From a phage: a stretch of 47,773 nucleotides of DNA. The position numbers were made by a program, and so were the translations under genes. Position 1 is the first letter of the stretch, and each line of letters opens with the position of its first letter. This document shows positions 1-47,773 of the stretch, one piece after another. The DNA lies in assembly GCA_036604865.1 (NCBI GenBank), contig GCA_036604865.1_4856.1; one strand, written 5' to 3'. Below the pieces are notes generated by a model that made no database searches, had not been told where the DNA came from, and saw only the letters and a list, made by a program, of their open reading frames with translations.

Positions 1-72
1 CGTAGCTTAATTGGTTAAAGCAACCGACTCATAATCGGCTGATTGAAGGTTCAAATCCGTCCGTGTCCACCA
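1..72 (+). tRNA. 3-prime 72 nt (including CCA) of the tRNA(CAU) whose full copy lies at 47642-47718; truncated by the window start
   Basis: Bases 1-127 are identical to 47647-47773; T-loop ggttcaaatcc and acceptor 3-prime strand cgtgtcc followed by acca are visible. Confidence 0.6.
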
Positions 73-77
73 AATTA

Positions 78-107
78 AAAGCCGCTTTATGCGGCTTTAT
101 TTATTTC
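78..107. terminator. rho-independent terminator after tRNA (hairpin agccgc-tttat-gcggct followed by T-rich run); also closes minus gene 101-475
   Basis: GC stem 80-96 followed by ttatttatttc; A-rich on the 5-prime side so it can act in both directions. Confidence 0.5.
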
Positions 108-475
108 ACGACCCGCAAAAGCAACTCATGCACAGGTCTTTTCTCTTCCGTTAACATCGGCCTACCGAGCGGCGCTTGCAACTGGATGTAGTTAACGCAT
201 GAATCAATCGGATGCGTCTTAATGTATTCGATAATCTCATTGGCTTTCGCATCGACATCAGCAACGTTGTACTGCCCATGTTTGCCAACAACATACAGCG
301 AGAAGTAGAAGTCACCACCGAGTCCATTCATAACCTGCGTGCCGCCATTGGTTTGCAGGACAATAAATTGCTCATTGCCATCTCCGGTGTCATTCCATAA
401 CTGCAACTGCGAAGTCCACCCATCATACAATCCGGCATCCTGAAGATATGCATCAACCAGTTCAAGTATATTCAC
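101..475 (-). CDS. putative tail terminator / tail completion protein (assigned by position only)
   Basis: 124-aa ORF, last minus-strand gene before the major tail gene across the window junction; no motif recognised. Confidence 0.4.
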   Translation of the reverse strand: MNILELVDAYLQDAGLYDGWTSQLQLWNDTGDGNEQFIVLQTNGGTQVMNGLGGDFYFSLYVVGKHGQYNVADVDAKANEIIEYIKTHPIDSCVNYIQLQAPLGRPMLTEEKRPVHELLLRVVK

Positions 476-3922: not shown

Positions 3923-4458
3923 TGAAACTAAAAATCAGCAAACTATTACTTGAATCAGCGTTAATATTTCAGGCGCGCAACGATATTCGTTACTATCTGA
4001 ACGGTATCTGCTTTATGCCTGATGGTCGCATTGCATCAACTGACGGTCATCGCGCATTTATTGGTTGCAGCCATGACAATACGCTGACAAAAAATGTGAT
4101 TATCAAGATTGGCAAATCTCCAACAAAACGCTATGACTACGCCATCATTGACACCAAGTCGAAAATTGCAACGTATCATGATGAAGCTGGCGTGATGGTT
4201 GGCGATGGTATCAGCGAAGAGATTGATGGCCGATTCCCTGACATTGACCGCGTGATACCAAAAGAAACGAAAGCAGCAGAGGAAATAGGATTCAATGCTA
4301 GCTACCTTGTTGATATTGAGAAAGTGGCGAAGCTGTTTAATCCTAAATTCTGTGGTGTCAAATTTGAACTGAATGGGAATACAAATGCCGCAGTTTGCTG
4401 TCTTAGCTCGCCATCTGGAGAGACTGCGAAGATTGTTGTTATGCCTATGCGTCTGTAG
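3922..4458 (+). CDS. hypothetical protein
   Basis: ORF track 3919-4458; ATG at 3922 overlaps the previous stop (TGATG); no domain recognised. Confidence 0.5.
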   Translation: MKLKISKLLLESALIFQARNDIRYYLNGICFMPDGRIASTDGHRAFIGCSHDNTLTKNVIIKIGKSPTKRYDYAIIDTKSKIATYHDEAGVMVGDGISEEIDGRFPDIDRVIPKETKAAEEIGFNASYLVDIEKVAKLFNPKFCGVKFELNGNTNAAVCCLSSPSGETAKIVVMPMRL

Positions 4459-4492: not shown

Positions 4493-5323
4493 TCACGCCA
4501 GATAAGTATCATCCTCAAACCATGACACATATGCATTGATATTCTGCACCGAAGTATCCAGTGATGTTATGCGAAGCAAATACGTCGTATTTGGTGCCAT
4601 GATAATCTGCTCGCCGAGCTTCGCCTGCGAGTTACCCTGACCCTGATTCGATGCGTTGCCCTCACTGTACGTCGCCGCCACCGTCAGTTGCCCAATACTT
4701 GTGATCGTAGAGCCAGTCAGAAGCTGTGCCGTAACTGCCTGCGGCGTTATATCGTTTGGATTGTTAATCTCCGCCGCCGTACCGCCGGTGGCAACTGCGC
4801 CGCGATAAATTGACGCAACAACACCTTTCCCTGTATAACCAATGATGCGCTGGTTAAATATCACCTGTTTTGTTCCGGTGATAAAGATGCTGTCAAGGTT
4901 TGAGCTGCCAGCAACATCAGTTACTCTGCGCGATGCAGTGAATAGCTTTCCTTGCTTGTTAGCAAACTCTGCATAGGACTGCGCGACAACCTGACTTGAT
5001 GGTACTGATGTGGCAGATCGCCATACCAGGACTTTCAGGGATGCAATGCCAGCTGGTATTTGTGACTTAATCACCTTCAGTCGCAGCGCCACGCCATAAT
5101 AATTATTATTGTTGACGTCAATCCAGAAATCACCGGATGCAAACGGCGATACCATTACGGAAACGGAGCCGCTTGTTAATGGCTCATAGCCACCGGAAGA
5201 ATTTAGCGGCACAATTTGTACCTGCAATGCTGACCAGTCAGCTGACATGGTTTCGCTAAGCAAAACCTCTCCGTCATCCGGAGTTGCGTTTATTTCGTAC
5301 CTGACAGCCATAGAAACCCCCAA
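4493..5323 (-). CDS. putative virion structural protein
   Basis: 276-aa Ser/Thr/Gly/Val-rich ORF downstream of the capsid gene block; no catalytic motif. Confidence 0.45.
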   Translation of the reverse strand: MGVSMAVRYEINATPDDGEVLLSETMSADWSALQVQIVPLNSSGGYEPLTSGSVSVMVSPFASGDFWIDVNNNNYYGVALRLKVIKSQIPAGIASLKVLVWRSATSVPSSQVVAQSYAEFANKQGKLFTASRRVTDVAGSSNLDSIFITGTKQVIFNQRIIGYTGKGVVASIYRGAVATGGTAAEINNPNDITPQAVTAQLLTGSTITSIGQLTVAATYSEGNASNQGQGNSQAKLGEQIIMAPNTTYLLRITSLDTSVQNINAYVSWFEDDTYLA

Positions 5324-6463: not shown

Positions 6464-7537
6464 TTAAGCCAATGGTGTTTGCGTCCCGTAACCATTAAAC
6501 ACTTTTGACTTCCCTGCAAAATCGCGTCTCACCTGAAGACCAAAAGCTGACCATACCATAAAGTTAAAGTTATCGTGCGGATTGTCACGGGCTGCCGCAT
6601 AGGTGGAAACAGGCTGAGCAACACGCGGACGGATGTACATGTCGTTGCGAACATAGCCAACGAAATGGTTGCCAGTCAGCAGGAAGTTGGTGCCAATCTT
6701 GCCGATGCGACCATTGCCGAACTGAGTGATGTACTGCTCAACCGTGCCGCCTTTGAAGCCAGCTGCATCAGAATACGGACGCATGAAGCTGCGACGTACT
6801 GCCGGGGAAACCCACAGAGTCACCTGCTCAAATACGTTCTGCGCATCCATAATAGCCTGGAAATCCTGATTGAAGAAGGTCACGATTTCGTCTGGCGTTG
6901 CGGTTTGCAGGTCGATATTCAGGCCGCCGGAAGCATTCAGGTTGACCTGAATAGTGTTCGGGTGGTTGGTGATACCGTAGCCAGTGTAAACGCCGTTCAC
7001 GTTCAGAGTCTGGTCGCCGGTCAGCAGATACTGCGCCATGTCAGAACGCAGGTTGAAGGTGACGTTGGCCTGATCGTCCAGCAGTGGGTCGAAGCCTTCA
7101 GACTGCATACCCAGCAGTTCGCGCCATTCGCGGCTGTAGCCAGTCTTGAAGATTGGAATCACATCGCCAGTGTAATCGTAGCGAGTTTTATCCAAATCTT
7201 CCGGTTCCTGACCAGACAGGGTGCGGACGACCTTACCAGCATCGGAAGCAATGCGGCTGATCGCCACAGTCTTACCGATATTGATGTTTGCCGCGATACC
7301 CATCAGGTCAGCCATCATATCCTGACCAGCTTCGTTGCGGAAAACGCGGGTGGTGACGTTGTCCACGTCGCGCCAGTAATCTTTCGTTACCAGCGCGGTG
7401 GCGTTAACACCGTAGGTTTTTGCCAGTTCGGCTTCTGCATTGCAGAACACTTTGCGGTCGATGGTCAGATGTTTCCACTGGTCAGCCACCACTGCGGAGT
7501 TGGCTACCAGGTCTTTGGTAAAAATAATCTTTTCCAT
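6464..7537 (-). CDS. major capsid protein
   Basis: 357-aa ORF with SD ggag, directly downstream of scaffold-like and decoration-like genes; size and position typical of HK97-fold capsid proteins. Confidence 0.6.
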   Translation of the reverse strand: MEKIIFTKDLVANSAVVADQWKHLTIDRKVFCNAEAELAKTYGVNATALVTKDYWRDVDNVTTRVFRNEAGQDMMADLMGIAANINIGKTVAISRIASDAGKVVRTLSGQEPEDLDKTRYDYTGDVIPIFKTGYSREWRELLGMQSEGFDPLLDDQANVTFNLRSDMAQYLLTGDQTLNVNGVYTGYGITNHPNTIQVNLNASGGLNIDLQTATPDEIVTFFNQDFQAIMDAQNVFEQVTLWVSPAVRRSFMRPYSDAAGFKGGTVEQYITQFGNGRIGKIGTNFLLTGNHFVGYVRNDMYIRPRVAQPVSTYAAARDNPHDNFNFMVWSAFGLQVRRDFAGKSKVFNGYGTQTPLA

Positions 7538-7539
7538 TA

Positions 7540-9419
<1,880 letters not shown>

Positions 9420-21085: not shown

Positions 21086-22507
21086 TTATCTCCTGCGCCG
21101 GATTAGCATCCCGCTACCGCGCTGAACGATGTGGTCATTTAGTGCATAGCGAACCGCATCCCAGAAGTGGTTGAATGCGTCAACAATATCAGTCAGCACA
21201 TTCCCTGTCAGCTTATCAACCTTATAGCTGTACATTGCCGCTTCATTCTGCATTTCCTTGCATCGTTCGTGAATGATGATACTGTCGCATCCACGCAGCC
21301 ATGTCACACCATCCTCAACACTGCCAGGCCATTTTGTGCATGGATGAATATCAAAACCAGAGCGCTTGATGTGGCTGATGGTTTCAGGTCGAGCGCAGTC
21401 GGCATACCATCGTGCGCGCTTAGCCATCGGGAATGATTGCTCCATCGCAGCTGGTGTATCGGTAATCTCAAGCCCCACCTTGCCGTACTCGCGATTAATA
21501 TAAATGTTGCGCCGCCCACCTGGCAATTCTTCGATGTAAACCTCAACCATTGCGGTCGGATCAGTGGAAAACCCGAAGTCCATGCCGAAGTATGGACCAT
21601 GCCATTCAGGTTTGGCCTCAAAGTTATCAATGCGCCATTTGCCGCCGAAGACCTGCTCGTCACTGCGCTTGTTAAATTTTCCTTCCCAAATCCACATGTA
21701 ACGGTCGAAGTCGACGCGCTTCATCTTATCTTTTGAACGGATTAACTCCTCTGTCATCCATGGGTTATCGGTCCAGTTACACTCAATGATGAGTATTTCA
21801 TCATCCTCGTAAATTCCGTTTACCATTTTGTCGTGCCACGGAGCCACCCAGCGCGTCCATGTGGCGTCGGTTTCTTTGTTGGGGTTGAATGTCACCCATA
21901 TTTCAGCGCCGGGGTTGCGAACGGTAGGCTCAAGGATATCCCATGATGCCTGACTGACGTTTTCAGCCTCCTCAATCCATGCCTTCGTGATGCCAGCAAA
22001 ACCCTTAACACCTGTCACGTTGCGATAAAGACCACGGAAGCGGAACTTTGATTTCGTCTTTTTGTGGGTAATCTTGCCATCAATGCAACGATACTCTTTT
22101 GATTCTCCCTTGCGATCAATCTCGTCCACCAGCTCCTGATAGCTGGAATCTTCAATTGATTGCTGAATCTCGCGGAAGCACCCGATACGCTCGGATTTAA
22201 ATCTTGCCGACTCAGTGAGGATTGTCGACACTGTGCGAGTCTTTGCCGACCCGCGTCCACCATAAACAACCTTCCACGGCTTCGGATAAAGCAGTCGCTC
22301 AAGTTTTGCGGGAATCAGGTGGTCGGCATGAGTAGTTACATTGGTCACATCATCAACGCCAGTGGCAGTCATCCTTAACCGTTTAATGACGTTCTTTTGC
22401 ATGTCACAGATACCAAAGATGGCAGACCCTGCAACATCTGTCATTGCATCATCAATCTGCGCTTCCAGCTTTTCAATTGCCAATGCAGAGAGGCGTTTAC
22501 GAGCCAT
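21086..22507 (-). CDS. terminase large subunit
   Basis: Walker A VYGGRGSAKT near N-terminus; C-terminal nuclease-type motif GMDFGFSTDPTA; 473 aa. Confidence 0.85.
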   Translation of the reverse strand: MARKRLSALAIEKLEAQIDDAMTDVAGSAIFGICDMQKNVIKRLRMTATGVDDVTNVTTHADHLIPAKLERLLYPKPWKVVYGGRGSAKTRTVSTILTESARFKSERIGCFREIQQSIEDSSYQELVDEIDRKGESKEYRCIDGKITHKKTKSKFRFRGLYRNVTGVKGFAGITKAWIEEAENVSQASWDILEPTVRNPGAEIWVTFNPNKETDATWTRWVAPWHDKMVNGIYEDDEILIIECNWTDNPWMTEELIRSKDKMKRVDFDRYMWIWEGKFNKRSDEQVFGGKWRIDNFEAKPEWHGPYFGMDFGFSTDPTAMVEVYIEELPGGRRNIYINREYGKVGLEITDTPAAMEQSFPMAKRARWYADCARPETISHIKRSGFDIHPCTKWPGSVEDGVTWLRGCDSIIIHERCKEMQNEAAMYSYKVDKLTGNVLTDIVDAFNHFWDAVRYALNDHIVQRGSGMLIRRRR

Positions 22508-22643
22508 TGATTAGCCCCTGCAAAACAGTCATCACCTCTTCATCGGTCATTGCTTTATCAAATGTAACGCCGCGACTACTGCTGTTGCGTGGCAATAGCA
22601 CCTCATCACATTTTGATTTATAGTTATTTGCTTCATCATCCAT
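22497..22643 (-). CDS. hypothetical small protein between terminase subunits
   Basis: ORF track 22497-22748; internal Met at 22643 fits between the two terminase genes with short overlaps. Confidence 0.3.
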   Translation of the reverse strand: MDDEANNYKSKCDEVLLPRNSSSRGVTFDKAMTDEEVMTVLQGLINGS

Positions 22644-23055
22644 TCTGCTGCTCCAGTAATTTTTCCAGTCGCTCAAGGCGTGCTGCGAGTTCGGTAACTT
22701 CAGCAATATCAAGCCCAGTCCTGATAACCTCCGCAAATGTCTTTCCAATGTCCACAGGTATAACGCCAGCGGCTATACCACGAATAACGGCGTCAATCTT
22801 CTGAACCGGAGTTCCATCATCAGGAAAGTCCACTTCAAATACTGGAGCAACTGGCTTCGGTAGCGGGCTGAATCGAACGATAAGTTCCTTCATCATTGAG
22901 GTGTCACGTTCAATCATTGCCATCTCAACGATGGTGTCATAGAGCTTTTCTTCGCTAAACCCCTTTCTCTCAAGAGCCTCAACAAGCAACTTTCGCTTAT
23001 CTTTCCCGCGCTTGTTTTGTGGTTGATTTTCTTTACTGAATAGCTTTTTAGCCAT
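22636..23055 (-). CDS. putative terminase small subunit
   Basis: 139 aa immediately upstream of the large subunit; basic N-terminus KRGKDKRK; positional inference. Confidence 0.45.
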   Translation of the reverse strand: MAKKLFSKENQPQNKRGKDKRKLLVEALERKGFSEEKLYDTIVEMAMIERDTSMMKELIVRFSPLPKPVAPVFEVDFPDDGTPVQKIDAVIRGIAAGVIPVDIGKTFAEVIRTGLDIAEVTELAARLERLEKLLEQQNG

Positions 23056-25631: not shown

Positions 25632-25715
25632 TTATTGCACCTCGTGAGAGTTAATGATTGCCTTAATGCGTCGACGATACCATTGCATGATGTGCTCGTT
25701 ATGCCAGTTGCTCAT
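25632..25715 (-). CDS. hypothetical small protein (27 aa)
   Basis: Not in ORF track; SD aggag six nt before ATG; stop abuts the next start; very short, so uncertain. Confidence 0.25.
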   Translation of the reverse strand: MSNWHNEHIMQWYRRRIKAIINSHEVQ

Positions 25716-25719
25716 TCTG

Positions 25720-25815
25720 TTACTCCTTATACCCTGACTTAGAAACTGCCACTGCGATAATGATGAATGCCACGATAAACAGACTGGCAATAAGTTCAAA
25801 TGCTGCGCCTGTCAT
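25720..25815 (-). CDS. small hydrophobic membrane peptide (31 aa)
   Basis: Not in ORF track; MTGAAFELIASLFIVAFIIIAVAVSKSGYKE; ATGA overlap with gene 25812-25997. Confidence 0.3.
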   Translation of the reverse strand: MTGAAFELIASLFIVAFIIIAVAVSKSGYKE

Positions 25816-25997
25816 TTCTTCGAAGCCTTATATTCATCTTCACTCATCGCATATGCCTCGCAAATCATGTTTGCCGCATCAATGATTGCATTTGAGCGCA
25901 TGTCAGCAGGCAGACTTGCAACCTGTTGTGACAATGCCATGCATATATCGCTGAACAACTTCATCTGGTCAATGTTGTACGTGCTTTCTTCTTTCAT
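25812..25997 (-). CDS. hypothetical small protein, first gene of the minus-strand early operon
   Basis: 61-aa ORF; SD gagggtga; directly downstream of the minus-strand promoter at 26028-26056. Confidence 0.45.
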   Translation of the reverse strand: MKEESTYNIDQMKLFSDICMALSQQVASLPADMRSNAIIDAANMICEAYAMSEDEYKASKK

Positions 25998-26027
25998 CTC
26001 TTCACCCTCGTTTGTTCCGATGAGTTC

Positions 26028-26056
26028 AATCTACATCAACGATGATTCTACGTCAA
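26028..26056 (-). promoter_or_regulatory. sigma70-type promoter on minus strand (TTGACG-17-TAGATT)
   Basis: Reverse complement gives ttgacg (26051-26056), 17-nt spacer, tagatt (26028-26033); opening matches cctgttgacgtaga as at 2501. Confidence 0.5.
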
Positions 26057-26077
26057 CAGGAATGCGTTAAAAACGTG

Positions 26078-26366
26078 CTCGTGGGGTAAATTTTTGCCCG
26101 TGGGGCAGGTCGTGGGGCAGGTCGGTTGCCCCACGTTTTTCATCGTAAATCATTGATTTGAATGTTTTTATTTTTCGTGGGTAAAAAGGGGCAGATTTCA
26201 TACCCATCCCCTTATAAGTATATTCAAATAATCCATTTGTTAATATTATGTTAATTACTATCTATAATATGAATAATAATATTACCCATTAACCCAAATA
26301 ATAATAATTTTATTATATTACATATACTTAGATGAATGTTTCGTGGGGCAGGTTGGTTGCCCCACG
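26078..26366. repeat. iteron-like direct repeats CGTGGGG(C/T)A with inverted CCCCACG copies flanking a ~150-bp AT-rich stretch
   Basis: cgtggggcaggt is tandemly duplicated at 26099-26122 and recurs at 26342-26353, each followed by ttgccccacg; related copies at 26080 and 26176; centre is about 80 percent A+T. Confidence 0.5.
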
Positions 26367-26462
26367 TTAACCCAATTTACCCCTTTTGACGCTTTTTGTT
26401 GTGTTGCAATGCTGGGGAGTAAGTGGTAGTATTTTGGGGAAATAGTTGATTGGGGAGCGGAA

Positions 26463-26735
26463 ATGAGCAATCACGGTGTATTATTAAAGCGCAAATTAAA
26501 CAAACATGGTCGTGGTGCTGGGTGGGTTGCATCATCAAAATCAACCACTGGATACTACGGTGTTGATTACCACAAGGCATCAAAAAAATTCAGAGCGAGA
26601 GTGATGGTACTCAAGAAAAGATATGAGCTTGGTATGTTTGAAACGGCAGAGGAAGCAAACGCTGCTGTTTTGAGAGCCAAGGAATGGTTATCAGAGAATC
26701 CTCATGAGAAATTTGAAACAGAGTACGAGGTCTAA
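26463..26735 (+). CDS. AP2-domain DNA-binding protein
   Basis: GYYGVDYHKASKKFRARV...GMFETAEEANAAVLRAKEWL fits the AP2 fold pattern; first gene of the plus replication module. Confidence 0.55.
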   Translation: MSNHGVLLKRKLNKHGRGAGWVASSKSTTGYYGVDYHKASKKFRARVMVLKKRYELGMFETAEEANAAVLRAKEWLSENPHEKFETEYEV

Positions 26736-28289
26736 ATGATTACAGCTCAAGACATCTTCAACGAAGCAAGGGAATTAAAAGTATCTCCTGCTCGCGTTGC
26801 CTTCCATCATGGCATGACACCAAGCTCAAACATGTGGCTTGACATCAAGGAAGGTAAGGAGCGTGATGTAACGTACTCAGAAACAGAACTGACCAGTGAG
26901 CACCGGACTGATTTACTGTCTCGTTATGCAATCTCAGCTGCTCGCGCCGTTCAGTTCCCAATAAATACATCGTTCATGCATTTACTTGGGTGCGTTGCCA
27001 GCGCAATGACGAGAAACTTTAGCGTTGAGTATTACCATTCAGAGCTTCCAGTTTCTCTTTACGTGGTTACTTCTCAGCCTCCATCAGCTGGGAAAACCGC
27101 CATTAACTCAATGCACATGAATCCGGTGAAGATTGAATATGACAACCTTTCCAAAAAGATGGAAAAGCAGATCATAAAAATAAATCTTCGCATTGAAGAA
27201 CTGATGAAGGCATACAAAGAGGCCAGTAATCAGAATGCAAAGGCACTAATCGGCGACGATATTGCTCGGGAAAAGGAGAAGCTGGAAGAGCTTTATACGA
27301 TTACATATCCACTGACGGACGCAACTCCAGAGGCTGTTCAGCATCAGGCCATTCATGAAGGTGGTTTTTTTAATCTGATAAGTGACGAGGCAAGCGTTCT
27401 TAACACCTGCCTTGGCCTCTCTTACGGAAAAGAAGGTGGAAAGGCAAACGCCGAAGTCATCCTGAAGGGCTGGGATGGCGGATTCATTGGTTCTGCTCGT
27501 GTTGGTCGTGGCGTTTCATCTGGTTACGTGCTTGGAAACATAAGTGTGATTGCGCAGGATGAAAGTATTGATGCCATTCTTGCCGCTGGCGACAGGGGGA
27601 ACGGTCTTTCTGAACGTTTCCTGATGTTGCGAGAGCAATCGATGCTTGGCTATCGCGAACACTGGGACATGGTTAATGACTGCCCTGTAAGCAAGCCAAT
27701 GCCAGACAGCTTGAGGTCGGAATATGCAAGATTTATACATAATGTTGTGTCAGCAGAAAAAACAAAACTGACGCTTCACAATGACTCAGCAAGAATGATC
27801 GGCCTGTTACGAAATCAGTGGGAGAAAAACTTCCTTCCCGGCGGTAAGTGGGACCACGTTCTTCTTCGTGGTGCAATGGGTAAAGCTGATAAGCAAATAA
27901 TCCGCCTGGCAGCAATATTTCACGCTGCTGAAAACTGGTGCGATGGAGGAAGACGGTCAAAAATTATCGGTGAAAATGAAATTAGTCGCGCTATCAGTGT
28001 TTATGACGCACTGACAAAAACATTCACCGACGCCGTGGAATCAAATGGATATGCTGGCGAGCGTTCTGAATTTGATGTTGTTGCCGAAAAGCTACGCTCT
28101 GCCGCTCAGAAAGGAAAAACAAACGTAACGGTGAAGTGGCTTTATGATTCACTTAAAAACGTTCGACCATTCAAAGGGATACCTAAAATTTATGACCGAC
28201 TCAGATCAAGTGTATTGCCATCACTTGAAGAGGATGGTTACTGCGTTTTTATTGGTAATACTGTCCACATTAATCCGAGGTTGAAATGA
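26736..28289 (+). CDS. replication-module protein, possibly DUF3987-like helicase/primase-associated
   Basis: 517 aa; P-loop-like SQPPSAGKT; sits beside primase and helicase genes; family assignment from memory, unverified. Confidence 0.5.
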   Translation: MITAQDIFNEARELKVSPARVAFHHGMTPSSNMWLDIKEGKERDVTYSETELTSEHRTDLLSRYAISAARAVQFPINTSFMHLLGCVASAMTRNFSVEYYHSELPVSLYVVTSQPPSAGKTAINSMHMNPVKIEYDNLSKKMEKQIIKINLRIEELMKAYKEASNQNAKALIGDDIAREKEKLEELYTITYPLTDATPEAVQHQAIHEGGFFNLISDEASVLNTCLGLSYGKEGGKANAEVILKGWDGGFIGSARVGRGVSSGYVLGNISVIAQDESIDAILAAGDRGNGLSERFLMLREQSMLGYREHWDMVNDCPVSKPMPDSLRSEYARFIHNVVSAEKTKLTLHNDSARMIGLLRNQWEKNFLPGGKWDHVLLRGAMGKADKQIIRLAAIFHAAENWCDGGRRSKIIGENEISRAISVYDALTKTFTDAVESNGYAGERSEFDVVAEKLRSAAQKGKTNVTVKWLYDSLKNVRPFKGIPKIYDRLRSSVLPSLEEDGYCVFIGNTVHINPRLK

Positions 28290-28557: not shown

Positions 28558-28588
28558 AAAAACCCTCCATATGGAGGGTTTCTTTTAT
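28558..28588. terminator. bidirectional rho-independent terminator (accctcc-atat-ggagggt then T-run)
   Basis: Hairpin 28563-28579 between convergent genes. Confidence 0.55.
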
Positions 28589-29538
28589 CTGCTGACTGAC
28601 ATTTTTTCTATCAACTCGCCAGCGTCATAAATCTTTCTCCTGATTCGCTTCGCCATCATGATAGTGTCCGCATCATCAGGCAGCATCACCGGTAGTCCTG
28701 CGTTTTCCGCAGCGCAAAGTTCATCAAATTTATAATTAACTATGCAGCGCAATCTCGCTTTCACCTCATCGCTAACCGAGCGCACAACCTCCCACATGTT
28801 TTCTGGCGACCAGCAGCACCATACGTGAGCGCCAGTGAAGTAATGGCACTTCCACGCGTCGGCATAATCAGATACCAGGTAAATGAACTTCCCGTTATCT
28901 TCTCCGATTGGGCTTATCGCGCCGCGCGTGAGTTTGCCGTTGATGGCTGAGTCCTTGTTGTACCCTGCGCGGAAAAACGTTTTGAATGAATCACCATCCA
29001 TGCCAATGAATGCCACGTTGCACGGCTTCATTGTGTCAGCTCGCATCATCTCAACCGCAATAAGCTCTCCAGATTTACCTCTGGCAACATTAACGTCGCA
29101 ACCAATACCATTTATCAACGTCCACTCATTCATCTCGACACGCGTCGTTTTAGCCATGATTGCGGCGACTTCCTGTTCGGTGATGAAGTCATCGTTGTAA
29201 TTTATCTTCGGCATCTCCTTCCTGATTGCCTCCAGCTTTTCGCATGGGTGCATGTTCAGGAATCCTCCCAGCGCCTCCAGTGCTTCAGGAAAGCTCATGC
29301 CTGAAAGTTTCATCAGCCAGTTCATGCCGCTGCCGGAGCCGCACTGATTGCAGATTGCACCGCCATCGCCTTTTGTTTCTAAGTTGTCATCAAAGCGATA
29401 TCTGTCTGTTCCACCACAACTTGGACATGGCTGGTGCTTACCATTGAAAACTCTGCTATCCACATTGACGATAGACATGATGGCGGCCTGCCAATTTCCG
29501 AGCATTTTTGGCTCAATGTCTTTCCAGTCGTATCTCAT
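28585..29538 (-). CDS. DNA primase (zinc ribbon plus TOPRIM-like)
   Basis: C4 zinc ribbon HQPCPSCGGTDRYRF...CNQCGSG then acidic motifs (FIGMDGD); ORF track begins with TTG at 29601, Met at 29538 preferred. Confidence 0.6.
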   Translation of the reverse strand: MRYDWKDIEPKMLGNWQAAIMSIVNVDSRVFNGKHQPCPSCGGTDRYRFDDNLETKGDGGAICNQCGSGSGMNWLMKLSGMSFPEALEALGGFLNMHPCEKLEAIRKEMPKINYNDDFITEQEVAAIMAKTTRVEMNEWTLINGIGCDVNVARGKSGELIAVEMMRADTMKPCNVAFIGMDGDSFKTFFRAGYNKDSAINGKLTRGAISPIGEDNGKFIYLVSDYADAWKCHYFTGAHVWCCWSPENMWEVVRSVSDEVKARLRCIVNYKFDELCAAENAGLPVMLPDDADTIMMAKRIRRKIYDAGELIEKMSVSR

Positions 29539-29613
29539 AAATTGACCCTTGATTGTTGGTGTAGATTGAGTATAAGCTAACTGACGTAGAAACATCAACA
29601 AAGGTTAGTTGCT

Positions 29614-31539
29614 ATGACGCATAAAATAGACAAGATGATTTCAGAGATTGACATTAACTTACTGAAATCCTGCTTGGATACTGGTGATATCGAGCCAAGA
29701 CCCTATCAGTGGTTGATATATAAGTTAACTGGTGATGTGATTCGTCATTATGTTGGCCCGAGCTATGTAACGGCAAGTGTAGGTAGTGGAAAGTCACTGA
29801 TGATTGCCATGATAGCAAAGCGTTTTCAGGAAATGGGATATTCAGGGATGATTTTATCAAGACAGGGAGAAATAGTGGAGCAGGATGCGGAAGAGCTATG
29901 GTCGCTTGGTGTTAGAAACTCGCTATTCAGTGCTTCGTTGGGTAGGAAAAGTTCTACTTATCCAATAATCTGTGGTTCTGAGGGTACTGTTATAAATGCT
30001 TTGTTTGATAAAAAGGATGAGTCAGGGAATGTTATTGCAAAAGGTGCGCTCTCTGACTTTTGCCCAAGATTCCTGCTTATCGATGAAAATCATATGGTTA
30101 ATGACATTGATGTTGTTAATAATGGTGATACGCAGTATGCAGTGATAATTAATGAGCTAATGAAAAGGTGCAAAGATAAGCACGGCCATGAGTTGAGAAT
30201 AATAGGTTATACAGGCTCACCGTTTCGCGGAACTACATCAATAAAAGGCGCTTTCTGGAAGAAGGAGATTATCAACATAGACACCAAATACATGGTTGAA
30301 AACGGTTTTCTTGTGCCAACAATTTTTGGTCTTCATGATGTTGATAGTCTGCATTATGACCTTTCAGATTTTCATGGTTCAGATGTTGATGGCACTCAGG
30401 ACTTTACCTCCGAGCAGCTCAAGCAGATGCAAAAAGAAATTCTTGAGCAAGGTACGTTGACGCAGAAAATCATGCTCAAGGTTATGGAGTTGACTAAAAA
30501 CAGAAACGGCGTACTGATTACATGTGCTGGTAAAAAACATTGTCAGGAGGCGGCAAAATACCTACCAGAAGGGAGTTATTCAATAGTTACAGAAGATATG
30601 GGGTCAAAAGCCAGAAGGAAGGCTCTAAAAGATGCATACACCGGGCGCAAAAAATTCACATTCCAGATAGCCGCCCTTACCACTGGCGTAAATATACCGT
30701 TATGGGATACGAGCTGCATATTACGAAAAATAATGTCGCTCACCCTTCTTGTTCAGTTGCTTGGTCGCGGAATGCGCCTGCTGAAGAAAGAGCAAATTGA
30801 TGCCGGGTATCATAAAGAAGACCATTTGGTTCTTGATTTCTCTGGCACGATGTTTGAGCTTGGTCAGTTATATGAAGACCCAATTCTGGAAGAAGCTGAA
30901 GCGCAGCGTTCAAAACGCATTGGTGAACAGGTTCCGTGTCCGAAATGTGGAACAATGAACAGCCCATATGCGCGCCGCTGCATTGGCAAAGATGCATTGT
31001 CGACAGATGGTAGATGCGAAGAGTTTTTCAGTTACATTCGCTGTGGATTTGACAAGCACGGAATCCGTATTTTTGATGATGGCTGCGGCACTAAAAACGA
31101 CCCTACAGCTCGCTATTGCAGACATTGCGATCACGTTTTGCGTGACCCGAATGCGGCACTGAATGAGCGTGCGTATACAGATAATGAGTGGGCTGATGTT
31201 ATGGATTTCAAAGTCCAGTTAACGAAGGATGGAGATGGGATTTTGTATCGCTACTGGATTAATCGTTGTGATGGCAAAGAGGGATGGGCTAATGAGGTTT
31301 TCTATCCATACGGCGGCGCAACTCACATGAAAAACATGTTCAAGGCGAAGGCCATCTTCCCTCACCTTGATGATAAATCAATGGCTGGGAGAATCCTGAA
31401 ATGCCAGAACGCAAAACAATTCATGATGTATGCGGGGTTAATTAAAGCGCCAAAACGCATCACGCATCGGATTAATGATAAAGGTCGCGACATTATCCAC
31501 AGAAAAGAATTTAAAGGAGAACAAAGTGAAGCAGCTTGA
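29614..31539 (+). CDS. superfamily 2 DNA helicase (DExH-type)
   Basis: Walker A ASVGSGKS, motif II LLIDENH, C-terminal Cys-rich zinc-finger-like region; 641 aa. Confidence 0.75.
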   Translation: MTHKIDKMISEIDINLLKSCLDTGDIEPRPYQWLIYKLTGDVIRHYVGPSYVTASVGSGKSLMIAMIAKRFQEMGYSGMILSRQGEIVEQDAEELWSLGVRNSLFSASLGRKSSTYPIICGSEGTVINALFDKKDESGNVIAKGALSDFCPRFLLIDENHMVNDIDVVNNGDTQYAVIINELMKRCKDKHGHELRIIGYTGSPFRGTTSIKGAFWKKEIINIDTKYMVENGFLVPTIFGLHDVDSLHYDLSDFHGSDVDGTQDFTSEQLKQMQKEILEQGTLTQKIMLKVMELTKNRNGVLITCAGKKHCQEAAKYLPEGSYSIVTEDMGSKARRKALKDAYTGRKKFTFQIAALTTGVNIPLWDTSCILRKIMSLTLLVQLLGRGMRLLKKEQIDAGYHKEDHLVLDFSGTMFELGQLYEDPILEEAEAQRSKRIGEQVPCPKCGTMNSPYARRCIGKDALSTDGRCEEFFSYIRCGFDKHGIRIFDDGCGTKNDPTARYCRHCDHVLRDPNAALNERAYTDNEWADVMDFKVQLTKDGDGILYRYWINRCDGKEGWANEVFYPYGGATHMKNMFKAKAIFPHLDDKSMAGRILKCQNAKQFMMYAGLIKAPKRITHRINDKGRDIIHRKEFKGEQSEAA

Positions 31540-31984: not shown

Positions 31985-32488
31985 ATGGATAAAGAATATG
32001 TAGATGAATGGCTTGTTGTTAATGCGGATGAGGGCACTGTTTTTTGGCGAAAGAGTAGAGGGCTAGCGAAAGCAGGTAATTCTGCAATACATAAACATGA
32101 AATCACTTCCAGAGGAGGAGCGAAATACAAAGTTATATCATTCGGAAGGAGACAGTGGTTATTACATAGATTTATCTGGACGTATGTTAACGGTGAAATA
32201 CCTGATGGAATGGTTATCGATCACATTGATGGAGACACAAGCAATAATTCAATAAAAAACTTAAGAATTGCCAGTAGGTCTGAGAGTTCATTTAACAAAG
32301 GGATGTTTAAAAATAACACATCTGGCGTAAAGGGTGTTTATTGGGATAAGAGAAATAAGAAGTGGATGGCGTACGGAAGAATAAATGGAAGGATGAAAAA
32401 TCTTGGAAGGTATTCCTCAATTGAGGATGCTAGAAATGCCGCAGATACATTCAGGCGAGTTAATTTTAAGGAATTTTACAGGCGGTGA
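31985..32488 (+). CDS. HNH homing endonuclease with AP2 DNA-binding domain
   Basis: HNH_3-type motif VIDHIDGDTSNNSIKNLR followed by AP2-like GVKGVYWDKRNKKWMAYGRINGRMKNLGRYSSIEDARNAA. Confidence 0.65.
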   Translation: MDKEYVDEWLVVNADEGTVFWRKSRGLAKAGNSAIHKHEITSRGGAKYKVISFGRRQWLLHRFIWTYVNGEIPDGMVIDHIDGDTSNNSIKNLRIASRSESSFNKGMFKNNTSGVKGVYWDKRNKKWMAYGRINGRMKNLGRYSSIEDARNAADTFRRVNFKEFYRR

Positions 32489-38314: not shown

Positions 38315-42115
<3,801 letters not shown>

Positions 42116-47641: not shown

Positions 47642-47718
47642 GGACGCGTAGCTTAATTGGTTAAAGCAACCGACTCATAATCGGCTGATTGAAGGTTCAA
47701 ATCCGTCCGTGTCCACCA
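47642..47718 (+). tRNA. tRNA with anticodon CAU (Met, or Ile if lysidine-modified), CCA encoded
   Basis: Cloverleaf: 7-bp acceptor stem with one G-U, D arm gctt/aagc, anticodon loop cuCAUaa, T loop ttcaaat, one A-G mismatch in T stem, discriminator A plus CCA. Confidence 0.75.
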
Positions 47719-47773
47719 AATTAAAAGCCGCTTTATGCGGCTTTATTTATTTCACGACCCGCAAAAGCAACTC
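47647..47773. repeat. 127-bp direct repeat of window positions 1-127 (genome closure overlap or terminal redundancy)
   Basis: Exact identity read from the sequence: cgtagcttaattggttaaagc...cgcaaaagcaactc at both ends. Confidence 0.9.
47724..47753. terminator. rho-independent terminator after the tRNA (same element as 78-107)
   Basis: Identical sequence to 78-107 within the terminal repeat. Confidence 0.5.

Follow-up and report, generated by a model that had tools for sequence, protein, structure and literature searches.

The noncoding gap between the divergently transcribed early operons of a 47,773 bp phage contig (GenBank assembly GCA_036604865.1, contig GCA_036604865.1_4856.1; 'the window' refers to this whole stretch) raises the question of where the phage begins to replicate its DNA and what recognises that site. 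No origin has been defined for the group that includes Macdonaldcampvirus, Deseoctovirus, Akiravirus, Roufvirus and Caminolopintovirus, or for T1-like relatives, and when phage TLS was re-annotated in 2024 origin repeats were sought and none was reported (PMC11447400). A preliminary description, made from the sequence of the window alone, had interpreted the gap as an origin or initiator-binding region. That idea survived every check that was run, and the gap probably contains a bidirectional replication origin that is recognised by the phage replication module and bracketed by two outward-facing sigma-70 promoters. The parts of the description that invoked direct iterons, the product of the adjacent AP2-domain gene and a set of TGGGGA repeats did not survive.

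The entire gap is 465 bp long (25998–26462) and lies between a leftward early/late operon, the first gene of which is at 25812–25997 on the minus strand, and the rightward replication operon. It is noncoding, as had been described, and extends beyond the approximately 400 bp (26078–26460) first assigned to it. The element proper occupies about 26028–26432, and the segment proposed to be the origin about 26080–26384. This segment opens with outer boxes in the G orientation (26080–26122, plus strand), consisting of CGTGGGGTAA (26080–26089) and a perfect tandem 12-mer CGTGGGGCAGGT at 26099–26122 (26099–26110 and 26111–26122), which was recovered by a repeat search and by TRF (2.2 copies, 100% match). 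The positions of these boxes are kept in relatives and the TGGGG within them is invariant. A 25 bp palindrome, CGTGGGGCA-GGTCGGT-TGCCCCACG, is found at 26111–26135 and is followed by TTTTT. The inner-left boxes (26176–26212) are a tandem pair of G boxes, CGTGGGTAAA and AAGGGGCAGA (26176–26195), followed by the inverted box ATACCCATCCCCT (26200–26212). Between the left palindrome and this inner pair there is an exact match to the IHF consensus (26146–26158, minus strand; AATCAATGATTTA against the consensus WATCAANNNNTTR), one of two in the genome, which is kept only in the closest subgroup and therefore appears to be optional.

Next is an AT-rich core (26213–26341, 16% GC), a candidate unwinding element. 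Within it, the inner-right boxes are a tandem pair in the C orientation (26283–26296, minus strand; TACCCA TTAACCCA) that is directly followed by (AAT)4 at 26297–26308; perfect trinucleotide runs of this kind are rare, with two in the genome. The right 25 bp palindrome, CGTGGGGCA-GGTTGGT-TGCCCCACG, is at 26342–26366, and the outer-right boxes, TTAACCCAA and TTTACCCCT, are again in the C orientation (26367–26384, minus strand). The two palindromes, of the form CGTGGGGCA-N7-TGCCCCACG, are 231 bp apart and, folded as single-stranded DNA (ssDNA), reach −11.4 (left) and −12.0 (right) kcal/mol, with a z score of about −5.6 (−5.7 for the left site taken alone). By sequence, the whole is a mirror-symmetric module, with outer G boxes and a palindrome, an inner G pair, the AT-rich core, an inner C pair, and a second palindrome with outer C boxes.

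Most of the individual repeats were as reported in the preliminary description, including the additional exact copy of CGTGGGGCAGGT at 26342–26353, the degenerate copies CGTGGGGTAA at 26080 and CGTGGGTAAA at 26176, both of which are kept in relatives, and the inverted copies TTGCCCCACG at 26126–26135 and 26357–26366, which give rise to the two palindromes. The very AT-rich core between the palindromes was likewise confirmed; 26219–26318 has a GC content of 14% and is the lowest 100 bp window of the genome, the next-lowest having 27% and the genome mean being 46%. The repeats are real, but not simple direct iterons: the boxes are short and oriented, and form two arrays that mirror each other. 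The three TGGGGA words are also present, at 26413, 26435 and 26451, but their spacing is 22 and 16 nt and not a uniform 16 nt or so. TGGGGA is not enriched in the genome (12 found against 16 expected), and the third copy is the Shine-Dalgarno sequence of the AP2 gene.

The boxes are confined to this one locus. The ends of the window (1–127 and 47647–47773) are identical over 127 bp, and this overlap at 100% identity makes the window a complete assembly, circular or circularly permuted, of 47,646 unique bases. At least 13 boxes are found in 26080–26384 and none elsewhere in this complete genome. CGTGGGGCA is present in five exact copies, all inside 26099–26366 and none in the rest of the genome, and GTGGGGYA occurs six times genome-wide, all within 26081–26365, where about 1.9 copies were expected and only one of 100 shuffles reached six. 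The words TGGGG and CCCCA together reach nine per 400 bp at this locus, the genome mean being 0.35.

DnaA boxes (TTWTNCACA) are not enriched, as the region has two sites with one mismatch where the genome density predicts 0.97, and there is no GATC; a DnaA-dependent origin was rejected for lack of either a DnaA-box cluster or a GATC cluster. A sigma-54 promoter was also considered and rejected, as GGCAGG-N4-TTGC in the palindrome resembles one by eye but gave no match at two or fewer mismatches, and the sigma-54-like GC dinucleotide is absent from the GGGGAA/TTCCCC variants of the palindrome.

The source phage is of the Salmonella/Shigella type. It is closest to Shigella phage DS8 (97% across the region), to Salmonella phages IME207, Vi II-E1 and Akira and to Escherichia phages C1 and Bas78/79, with Klebsiella phages and the Roufvirus vibrio and aeromonas phages more remote (about 72%). 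An alignment of 27 distinct homologous regions from GenBank and IMG/VR was scored in 20 bp blocks. Over 26003–26382 conservation was 0.65–0.9, compared with 0.2–0.6 in the flanking small genes and 0.8–0.9 in the gene for the DUF3987 helicase on the right, so that this noncoding stretch appears from the alignment to be under purifying selection and to be as well conserved as the helicase gene. The block 26236–26332 of the AT-rich core is almost invariant, and an exact copy of the 20-mer TATAATATGAATAATAATAT was found in all relatives for which the DNA retrieved spans the core. The repeats were present in all relatives that keep the replication genes, and in very distant phages besides, as the preliminary description had required of an origin. 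A minus-strand open reading frame (ORF) at 26067–26207 (46 aa), annotated in DS8 and Bas78 and not in the Klebsiella, Roufvirus, C1 or STGO records, was treated as spurious on account of 1 nt indels and a segment replacement within it in relatives.

The only invariant part of the aligned palindromes is TGGGG-N11-CCCCA (27 rows; 11 left-site and 18 right-site variants listed). The arms mostly covary, GCA/TGC changing to GAA/TTC and GTG/CAC to TTG/CAA, with six to eight of the 27 rows mismatched at the variable pairs; at pair 8/18, for example, CG was found in 12 rows, AU in nine and no pairing in six. Because the arm positions mostly covary, with this proportion of mismatched rows, there seems to be some selection for dyad symmetry, the constant feature being the boxes and not a perfect stem. 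The palindromes are 231–232 bp apart (about 22 helical turns) in the window, Vi II-E1, Bas78, the Klebsiella group and Roufvirus, with departures in C1 and STGO. Equivalents of the inner-left tandem pair were found in C1/STGO (TTTGGGGAAGTGGGGCAG), the Klebsiella group and, amongst the more distant loci described below, L042, Ymer, D93, L048, L050, L051 and L074, and equivalents of the inner-right pair in L042 (ACCCCAGTTACCCCAA), Ymer (TTACCCATTTTCCCCAC), D93, L047, L050 and L074. The outer-right boxes are TGCCCCACG and TTACCCACG in C1/STGO/Bas78 and two copies of TTCCCCACGG in Ymer. In Salmonella phage Vi II-E1 (GenBank accession number AM491472) the same 25-mer, GTGGGGCAACCAACCTGCCCCACGA, is annotated twice as a repeat_region at the homologous positions, with no function given; a full-text literature search for the 25-mer found no match.

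The same module was found beside DUF3987 genes in phages that are otherwise very different. Most of the distant loci were located from homologues of the 517 aa helicase, and the DNA within 6 kb was inspected. In 10 of the 11 sampled lineages outside the T1-like phages, the layout is present within 1.5 kb of the DUF3987 gene, on either side of it and down to 36% protein identity. The module is upstream in L042 (62% DUF3987 identity), where the synteny is the same, and in L050 (37%), which has 27 GGGG/CCCC words in 400 bp. In Pectobacterium phage Ymer (49%) it runs across the junction of the linear record, and in Vibrio myovirus D93 (39.5%), where it is again upstream, 10 boxes surround a 12% GC window that is both the sole box cluster and the most AT-rich spot in 79 kb. 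It is directly downstream of the helicase gene in L047 (42%) and L051 (36%), approximately 1 kb downstream in L048 (39%), approximately 0.3 kb downstream in L074 (39%), and downstream in L075 (38%), while in L049 (39%) GGGAT boxes are found instead and the geometry is unchanged. The module follows the helicase gene through siphoviruses and myoviruses of Salmonella, Escherichia, Klebsiella, Pectobacterium and Vibrio. Across 11 loci, which are not independent of one another, G runs and C runs numbered 60:30 to the left of the core and 19:56 to the right (Fisher p = 2e-7). The segment between the boxes is the most AT-rich of the genome in the window, D93 and JMPW1, but not in Ymer (28% GC).

In L047, L051, L074 and L075 the module is downstream of the helicase gene with genes on one side only, and the mirror symmetry is retained. 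Because the left array faces no gene in these four lineages, control of divergent promoters cannot explain it; a bidirectional origin can. A hairpin with a T-run, read by eye as a likely terminator, stands between the helicase gene and the module in L047, L051 and L075.

In T1-like phages (34% identity) no G boxes were found anywhere in the genome. Their most AT-rich DNA is at the head of the operon that contains the DUF3987 gene, and it is flanked by other inverted boxes, as in JMPW1, where TTGTCTA/TAGACAA boxes surround the most AT-rich 100 bp, and in L077, which has the palindrome TTGTACGC-N7-GCGTACAA and an (AAT)6 run. Such a combination of shared geometry and altered boxes is what co-evolution of an initiator and its site would give. 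As the box sequence differs between helicase lineages that are found on similar hosts, specificity encoded by the phage is a better fit than a host factor.

Some further features of these loci were recorded. Trinucleotide runs lie in the AT-rich core by the inner boxes in the window (26297–26308), in L047 ((TAG)4, 7840–7851), L048 ((TAG)4, 5003–5014), L051 ((TAC)5, 7900–7914) and L077 ((AAT)6, about 4255–4275), such runs otherwise occurring one or two times per genome. Only six of the lineages examined have such a run, and L042, D93, L050 and Ymer lack one. A GC-rich motif precedes the right palindrome in Ymer (L044, about 41090–41110) and L048 (5062–5085), where it is GGCGCGGCTCTCAGCGTGGGG, and in L074 (8150–8170), where it is GTGCGGCCTCCAGCGCGGGG; the helicases of these three lineages are 39–49% identical to that of the window, which lacks the motif. 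A pattern scan of 2.9 million viral contigs in IMG/VR for two TGGGG-N11-CCCCA palindromes 195–225 bp apart returned 22 stretches, 17 of them from the clade of the window and five with unrelated-looking arrays. One IMG/VR contig of 58,938 bp (L064, 4503–4747) has seven tandem GTGGGGGCAGAAAGCGCCCCCA hairpins at a spacing of about 32 nt; in the 13 kb examined, neither DUF3987 nor a primase or SF2 helicase is encoded. Mirror-image arrays of GGGG/CCCC palindromes around a core of about 150 bp are found in L071 (1600–1915), L072 (1000–1345) and L073 (1055–1365), which are short contigs with no DUF3987 detected; here the polarity is opposite, with the C-orientated extras on the left and the G-orientated extras on the right.

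A comparison of gene content narrows down what could recognise the boxes. Using tblastn at 1e-4, the only genes common to the window, Ymer and D93 were those for the DUF3987 protein, the primase, the SF2 helicase, the VRR-NUC protein, the PDDEXK exonuclease and the single-stranded DNA-binding protein (SSB). No common terminase, AP2 protein or small regulator was found in this search, which very fast-evolving small proteins could escape. Because terminases and small regulators are not common to these phages, the possibility that the boxes are a packaging (pac) site is removed and that of a dedicated phage transcription factor is weakened. The gene for DUF3987 is the only shared gene that is always 1.5 kb or less from the module, the primase being 17 kb away in D93 and the SF2 helicase, which with its zinc ribbons is an alternative candidate for the origin binder (641 aa; 29614–31539, plus strand, in the window), 11 kb from the boxes in Ymer. 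The DnaG-type primase (28585–29601, minus strand), identified in domain searches and containing a zinc ribbon, is common to Ymer, D93 and JMPW1.

The DUF3987 protein of the window (26736–28289, plus strand; 517 aa; Pfam DUF3987, E = 1e-34) belongs to the MCM-like SF6 helicases and is the candidate initiator and replicative helicase. Its AlphaFold model has a pLDDT of 90.7, and each of the best 50 PDB matches found with Foldseek was an MCM subunit or a complex that contains MCM (best E = 6e-5), at a low TM score of 0.35. In the model, the last 75 or so residues (about 440–517) are predicted to form a helix-strand-helix-helix-strand-strand arrangement resembling a winged helix. A sequence search of the PDB gave no significant match for this protein. 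DUF3987 proteins are related to MCM and widespread, INPHARED alone having 1,163 records of phage genomes that encode them, and were predicted from sequence analysis to be replicative helicases (PMC4889955); in keeping with the model, a PriCT-DUF3987 protein is an ATP-dependent 5′-to-3′ helicase in vitro (PMC11724360). The mention of DUF3987 in connection with the PICMI satellite was found to be irrelevant to this locus.

These observations can be drawn together as follows. A protein of the phage replication module would bind short oriented boxes with the core TGGGG, or in extended form GTGGGG[C/T]A, the likeliest binder being the DUF3987 helicase, acting through either an N-terminal helix-turn-helix-like segment or the C-terminal winged helix. 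With the G-orientated array on the left and the C-orientated array on the right, each with one 25 bp palindrome and a tandem inner pair, and with the arrays 231 bp (22 turns) apart on the same face of the helix, two oppositely oriented complexes could assemble on either side of the 16% GC core. The core would then melt, and the palindromes could extrude as hairpins once single-stranded. Two helicase rings would be loaded, the DnaG-type primase would prime, and host polymerase would replicate in both directions. The promoters on each side (26056–26028 leftward and 26404–26432 rightward) would drive the early operons and may aid origin opening, and the cis-acting module would travel with the DUF3987 gene. 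A more specific proposal is that this would be a widespread type of origin module not recognised before, in which the helicase is itself the initiator on the mirror arrays, with the tandem inner pair and trinucleotide run guiding an AAA+ oligomer onto ssDNA so as to melt the core, and two opposed MCM-type rings as the product; in this detail the proposal is speculative, and we hold it to be doubtful.

Several points weigh against an origin. The cumulative GC-skew, put forward in the preliminary description as a check, does have its global minimum close to the element, at 26057, but this coincides with the switch in gene orientation and is not independent evidence, and the maximum, at 7094, is not opposite the minimum. 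Coding-strand skew does fit an origin here, being higher in genes co-oriented with outgoing forks than in the others (0.128 against 0.013 in the right arm, 0.097 against 0.078 in the left), though the gene calls are noisy. The nearly invariant AT-rich core contains good sigma-70 hexamers (TTAATA-17-TATAAT), and the conservation could reflect transcription signals. The arm covariation of the palindromes is only partial, as noted above. The adjacency to DUF3987 is partly built into the sampling, a bias that whole-genome scans of the window, Ymer and D93 lessen but do not fully remove, and L076 (37% identity) has no module within 6 kb of the helicase gene. No correspondence was found between the type of box and residues of the helicase, as the wing, the recognition helix and the N-terminal helix-turn-helix-like segment show no pattern. 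Finally, origin function is for every member of the set a prediction from sequence comparison.

Of the alternatives, the one that survives best is that the element serves purely in transcription control, with the boxes and palindromes as operators or enhancer-like sites for a host or phage regulator that loops the 231 bp segment to turn the divergent early promoters on or off, and the core acting as a set of clustered, strong early promoters with UP elements. The region does seem to be a promoter region as well, as it carries two conserved outward-facing promoters. The leftward one (26028–26056, minus strand), found in a promoter scan, has a −35 sequence TTGACG (26056–26051), a 17 nt spacer and a −10 sequence TAGATT (26033–26028), and transcription is predicted to begin about 24 nt before the ATG at 25997. 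Its TCTACGTCAA is invariant in 27 of 27 relatives, in the Klebsiella/Roufvirus group TATAGT occupies the −10 position, and L042 has TTGACG-17-TAGATT. The rightward promoter lies in a cassette at 26404–26462 (plus strand) that includes the three TGGGGA words, and has a −35 sequence TTGCAA (26404–26409), a 17 nt spacer and a −10 sequence TAGTAT (26427–26432). It matches at eight of 12 hexamer positions, which is under the threshold of the scan, and the −10 position is kept in relatives as TAGTGT, TATGTT, TATCAT or TATGAT. The palindromes are 55–80 bp upstream of the proximal promoters and about 75–130 bp from the best hexamer pairs of the core, and overlap no predicted −35 or −10 sequence.

Transcription control is favoured by these two promoters bracketing the element, and by the hexamer pairs in the core, TTAATA-17-TATAAT (26240–26268) amongst them. 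The spacing of 231–232 bp corresponds to 22 helical turns, as looping would need, in both the window and D93 a TTGACG hexamer adjoins the outermost C box, and the region heads at least one operon in every case. Yet promoter-like sites number only about twice the shuffle mean (8 against 4.1 ± 1.7). No cognate regulator is common to the box-bearing phages compared, the first gene encoding an AP2 protein, a YdaS-like protein or something unrelated, and the box motif is found at no other promoter in the complete genomes of the window, Ymer and D93. The mirror-image left array is kept in the four lineages that have no leftward gene, a change of boxes between helicase lineages with similar hosts argues against a host factor, and DnaA-box enrichment, a sigma-54 match and GATC are all absent. 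Transcription control as the whole function is plausible but unlikely.

An improbable alternative is that the palindromes act in RNA or as terminators, either as stem-loops in the 5′ leaders of transcripts from core promoters, serving as stabilisers or processing sites, or as inward-facing intrinsic terminators that insulate the core. The hairpins are stable, the left one is followed by TTTTT and was called terminator-like on the plus strand, and a T-run recurs in the Klebsiella group and in L051. Arm covariation reaches 0.155 against 0.094 in shuffles (three of 500 shuffles reach 0.155), and Ymer has a longer, 13 bp stem at the same place. However, the left hairpin has no gene upstream of it whose transcript it could terminate; the T-run in the window is present only at the left palindrome on the plus strand, where no gene ends, and is missing in C1/STGO. 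Covariation is broken at the variable pairs in the six to eight rows already mentioned, left sites of the L020 type keep GGGG...CCCC and lose the stem, and most boxes are single and unpaired and so are left unexplained. No Rfam family was matched (best E values of 0.034 and 0.22, far below gathering scores), and a separate likely terminator hairpin, identified by eye, follows the helicase gene in L047, L051 and L075.

Very improbable is a pac site at which the boxes bind the small terminase subunit around a cleavage region, a layout resembling that of P1 pac, where repeats flank a central segment; the GenBank records of Akira (L002, position 1 of which is window 26241) and Ymer (L044, directly after the inner G boxes) are cut inside the AT-rich core, the analogous region of T1-like genomes is at the left end of the record, which could mark the start of packaging, and the window has candidate small (22636–23055) and large (21086–22507) terminase genes 3–4 kb to the left of the element, but these terminases have no detectable homologue in Ymer, D93 or JMPW1, the same boxes are present in Ymer and D93 despite unrelated terminases, the small subunit varies (GP3_package in L048 and L051, Terminase_2 in L047, a PHROG of unknown function in the window), the module of D93 is about 24 kb from the terminase gene, and record starts vary by about 100 bp among relatives and may be copied conventions. 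A terminase site was rejected because the boxes are common while the terminases are unrelated. What probability remains falls to other functions, such as a recombination or partition-like site of the shared module.

The preferred interpretation, a bidirectional origin, does not include the right-hand end of the gap. The segment to the right of the C boxes (26404–26735) is a promoter-plus-first-gene cassette that is swapped among relatives, and the TGGGGA triplet, which had been counted as part of the element, belongs to it and is conserved only among relatives that encode AP2. This version of the cassette, with AP2 and three TGGGGA words spread across its promoter and leader, occurs in the window, in DS8 and Vi II-E1, and in the Klebsiella and Roufvirus groups. 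In C1, STGO-35-1 and Bas78 (L005, L006 and L008) the cassette is instead an unrelated 72 aa gene with a palindrome, TTATGAT-N8-ATCATAA, over the promoter, and this looks like a regulator with its own operator. The AP2-domain protein is 90 aa long and encoded by the first gene of the right operon (26463–26735, plus strand; phrog_35306), the match to Pfam AP2 (E = 7e-4) being below the curated cut-off, and it gave no significant match in a sequence search of the PDB. Its proposed role as the binder of the boxes could not be upheld, as many box-bearing phages lack the gene and unrelated proteins take its place in C1/STGO/Bas78, L042, Ymer and D93. Its role is more probably that of a local regulator. 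In Vi II-E1 the gene (L001, 2944–3245) is annotated as a two-piece pseudogene in a viable phage, which suggests either that AP2 is dispensable or that the record has a sequencing error. A second AP2 domain, fused to an HNH_3 nuclease domain, is encoded at 31985–32488 (plus strand) in what looks like a homing endonuclease gene within the replication/recombination operon. The free-standing protein matches the same HNH-endonuclease PHROGs, and may have been derived from a gene of this HNH-AP2 type.

The remaining genes around the gap are arranged in two arms. To the left, small leftward early genes include those for an Stp-like peptide and a DUF7540 protein, beyond which are the candidate small terminase, the large terminase and the portal. 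The Stp-like peptide (55 aa; 25632–25799, minus strand) belongs to the T4 Stp 'anticodon nuclease activator' family (PF08133, E = 5e-8; phrog_6763) and could be a host-takeover or anti-restriction peptide. To the right, the AP2 gene is followed by the genes for the DUF3987 helicase, the DnaG-type primase on the minus strand and the SF2 helicase, and then by those for the VRR-NUC protein, the HNH-AP2 endonuclease, the PDDEXK exonuclease, an AAA_24 protein and SSB.

The module is a concrete and testable candidate for the loading site of the DUF3987 helicase. If the more specific proposal holds, in which the helicase is itself the initiator, it would be the first defined origin for T1-like phages (Drexlerviridae), for phages of the Macdonaldcampvirus/Roufvirus type and for the related vibriophages, and would provide a bacterial-virus model for the origin-specific loading of an MCM-like helicase without loaders of the ORC/Cdc6 type. 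The module would also help to orient and annotate these genomes, several of which are used for biocontrol of Salmonella and Klebsiella, to build phage-derived replicons, and to interpret satellites and defence systems that target phage replication.

The layout can be compared with that of three known systems. In the basal unwinding system of bacterial oriC, tandem DnaA boxes are combined with DnaA-trios (PMC8287927). The window similarly has a tandem box pair beside a run of trinucleotides with a central A in an AT-rich segment, TACCCATTAACCCA with (AAT)4, and other lineages have (TAG)4 (L047, L048), (TAC)5 (L051) or (AAT)6 (L077). The half-arrays of Escherichia coli oriC have opposite orientation, as do those of the window. 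The boxes of the window are not DnaA boxes, however (the best fit is at five of nine positions), the phage encodes no DnaA homologue, and the side of the box pair on which the trinucleotide run lies varies between lineages, four of which lack the run, as listed above. If the comparison holds, the module would be a phage analogue of the DnaA-box pair and DnaA-trio built on an MCM-type enzyme.

The SV40 origin with T antigen and the HSV-1 oriS with UL9 are dyad-symmetric origins that are served by double hexamers and located between divergent promoters. Like them, the window has inverted boxes on either side of an AT-rich centre, with arms that can form hairpins once melted, and the site is between divergently transcribed early genes. 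The module differs in belonging to a bacterial virus, in having unrelated boxes, in being far larger (about 300 bp with at least 13 boxes) and in not being between divergent genes in four lineages (L047, L051, L074 and L075). In addition, one DUF3987 homologue unwinds DNA 5′ to 3′, unlike MCM, T antigen and UL9.

The ori and crr of P4 with the alpha protein and the ori of the Staphylococcus aureus pathogenicity islands (SaPI) with Rep are iteron-type origins served by a helicase-initiator. The helicase of the window is of the DUF3987/SF6 (MCM-like) type and not the SF3 type of D5 and P4, and is accompanied by a separate DnaG-type primase. The boxes are also far shorter, with a core of 5–8 nt, and are arranged in two mirror arrays with two 25 bp palindromes, and their binding by the helicase is only proposed here. 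There are likenesses as well; short direct and inverted sites flank an AT-rich segment, the site adjoins the gene for a helicase with a C-terminal DNA-binding domain, and the sequence of the site varies between helicase lineages.

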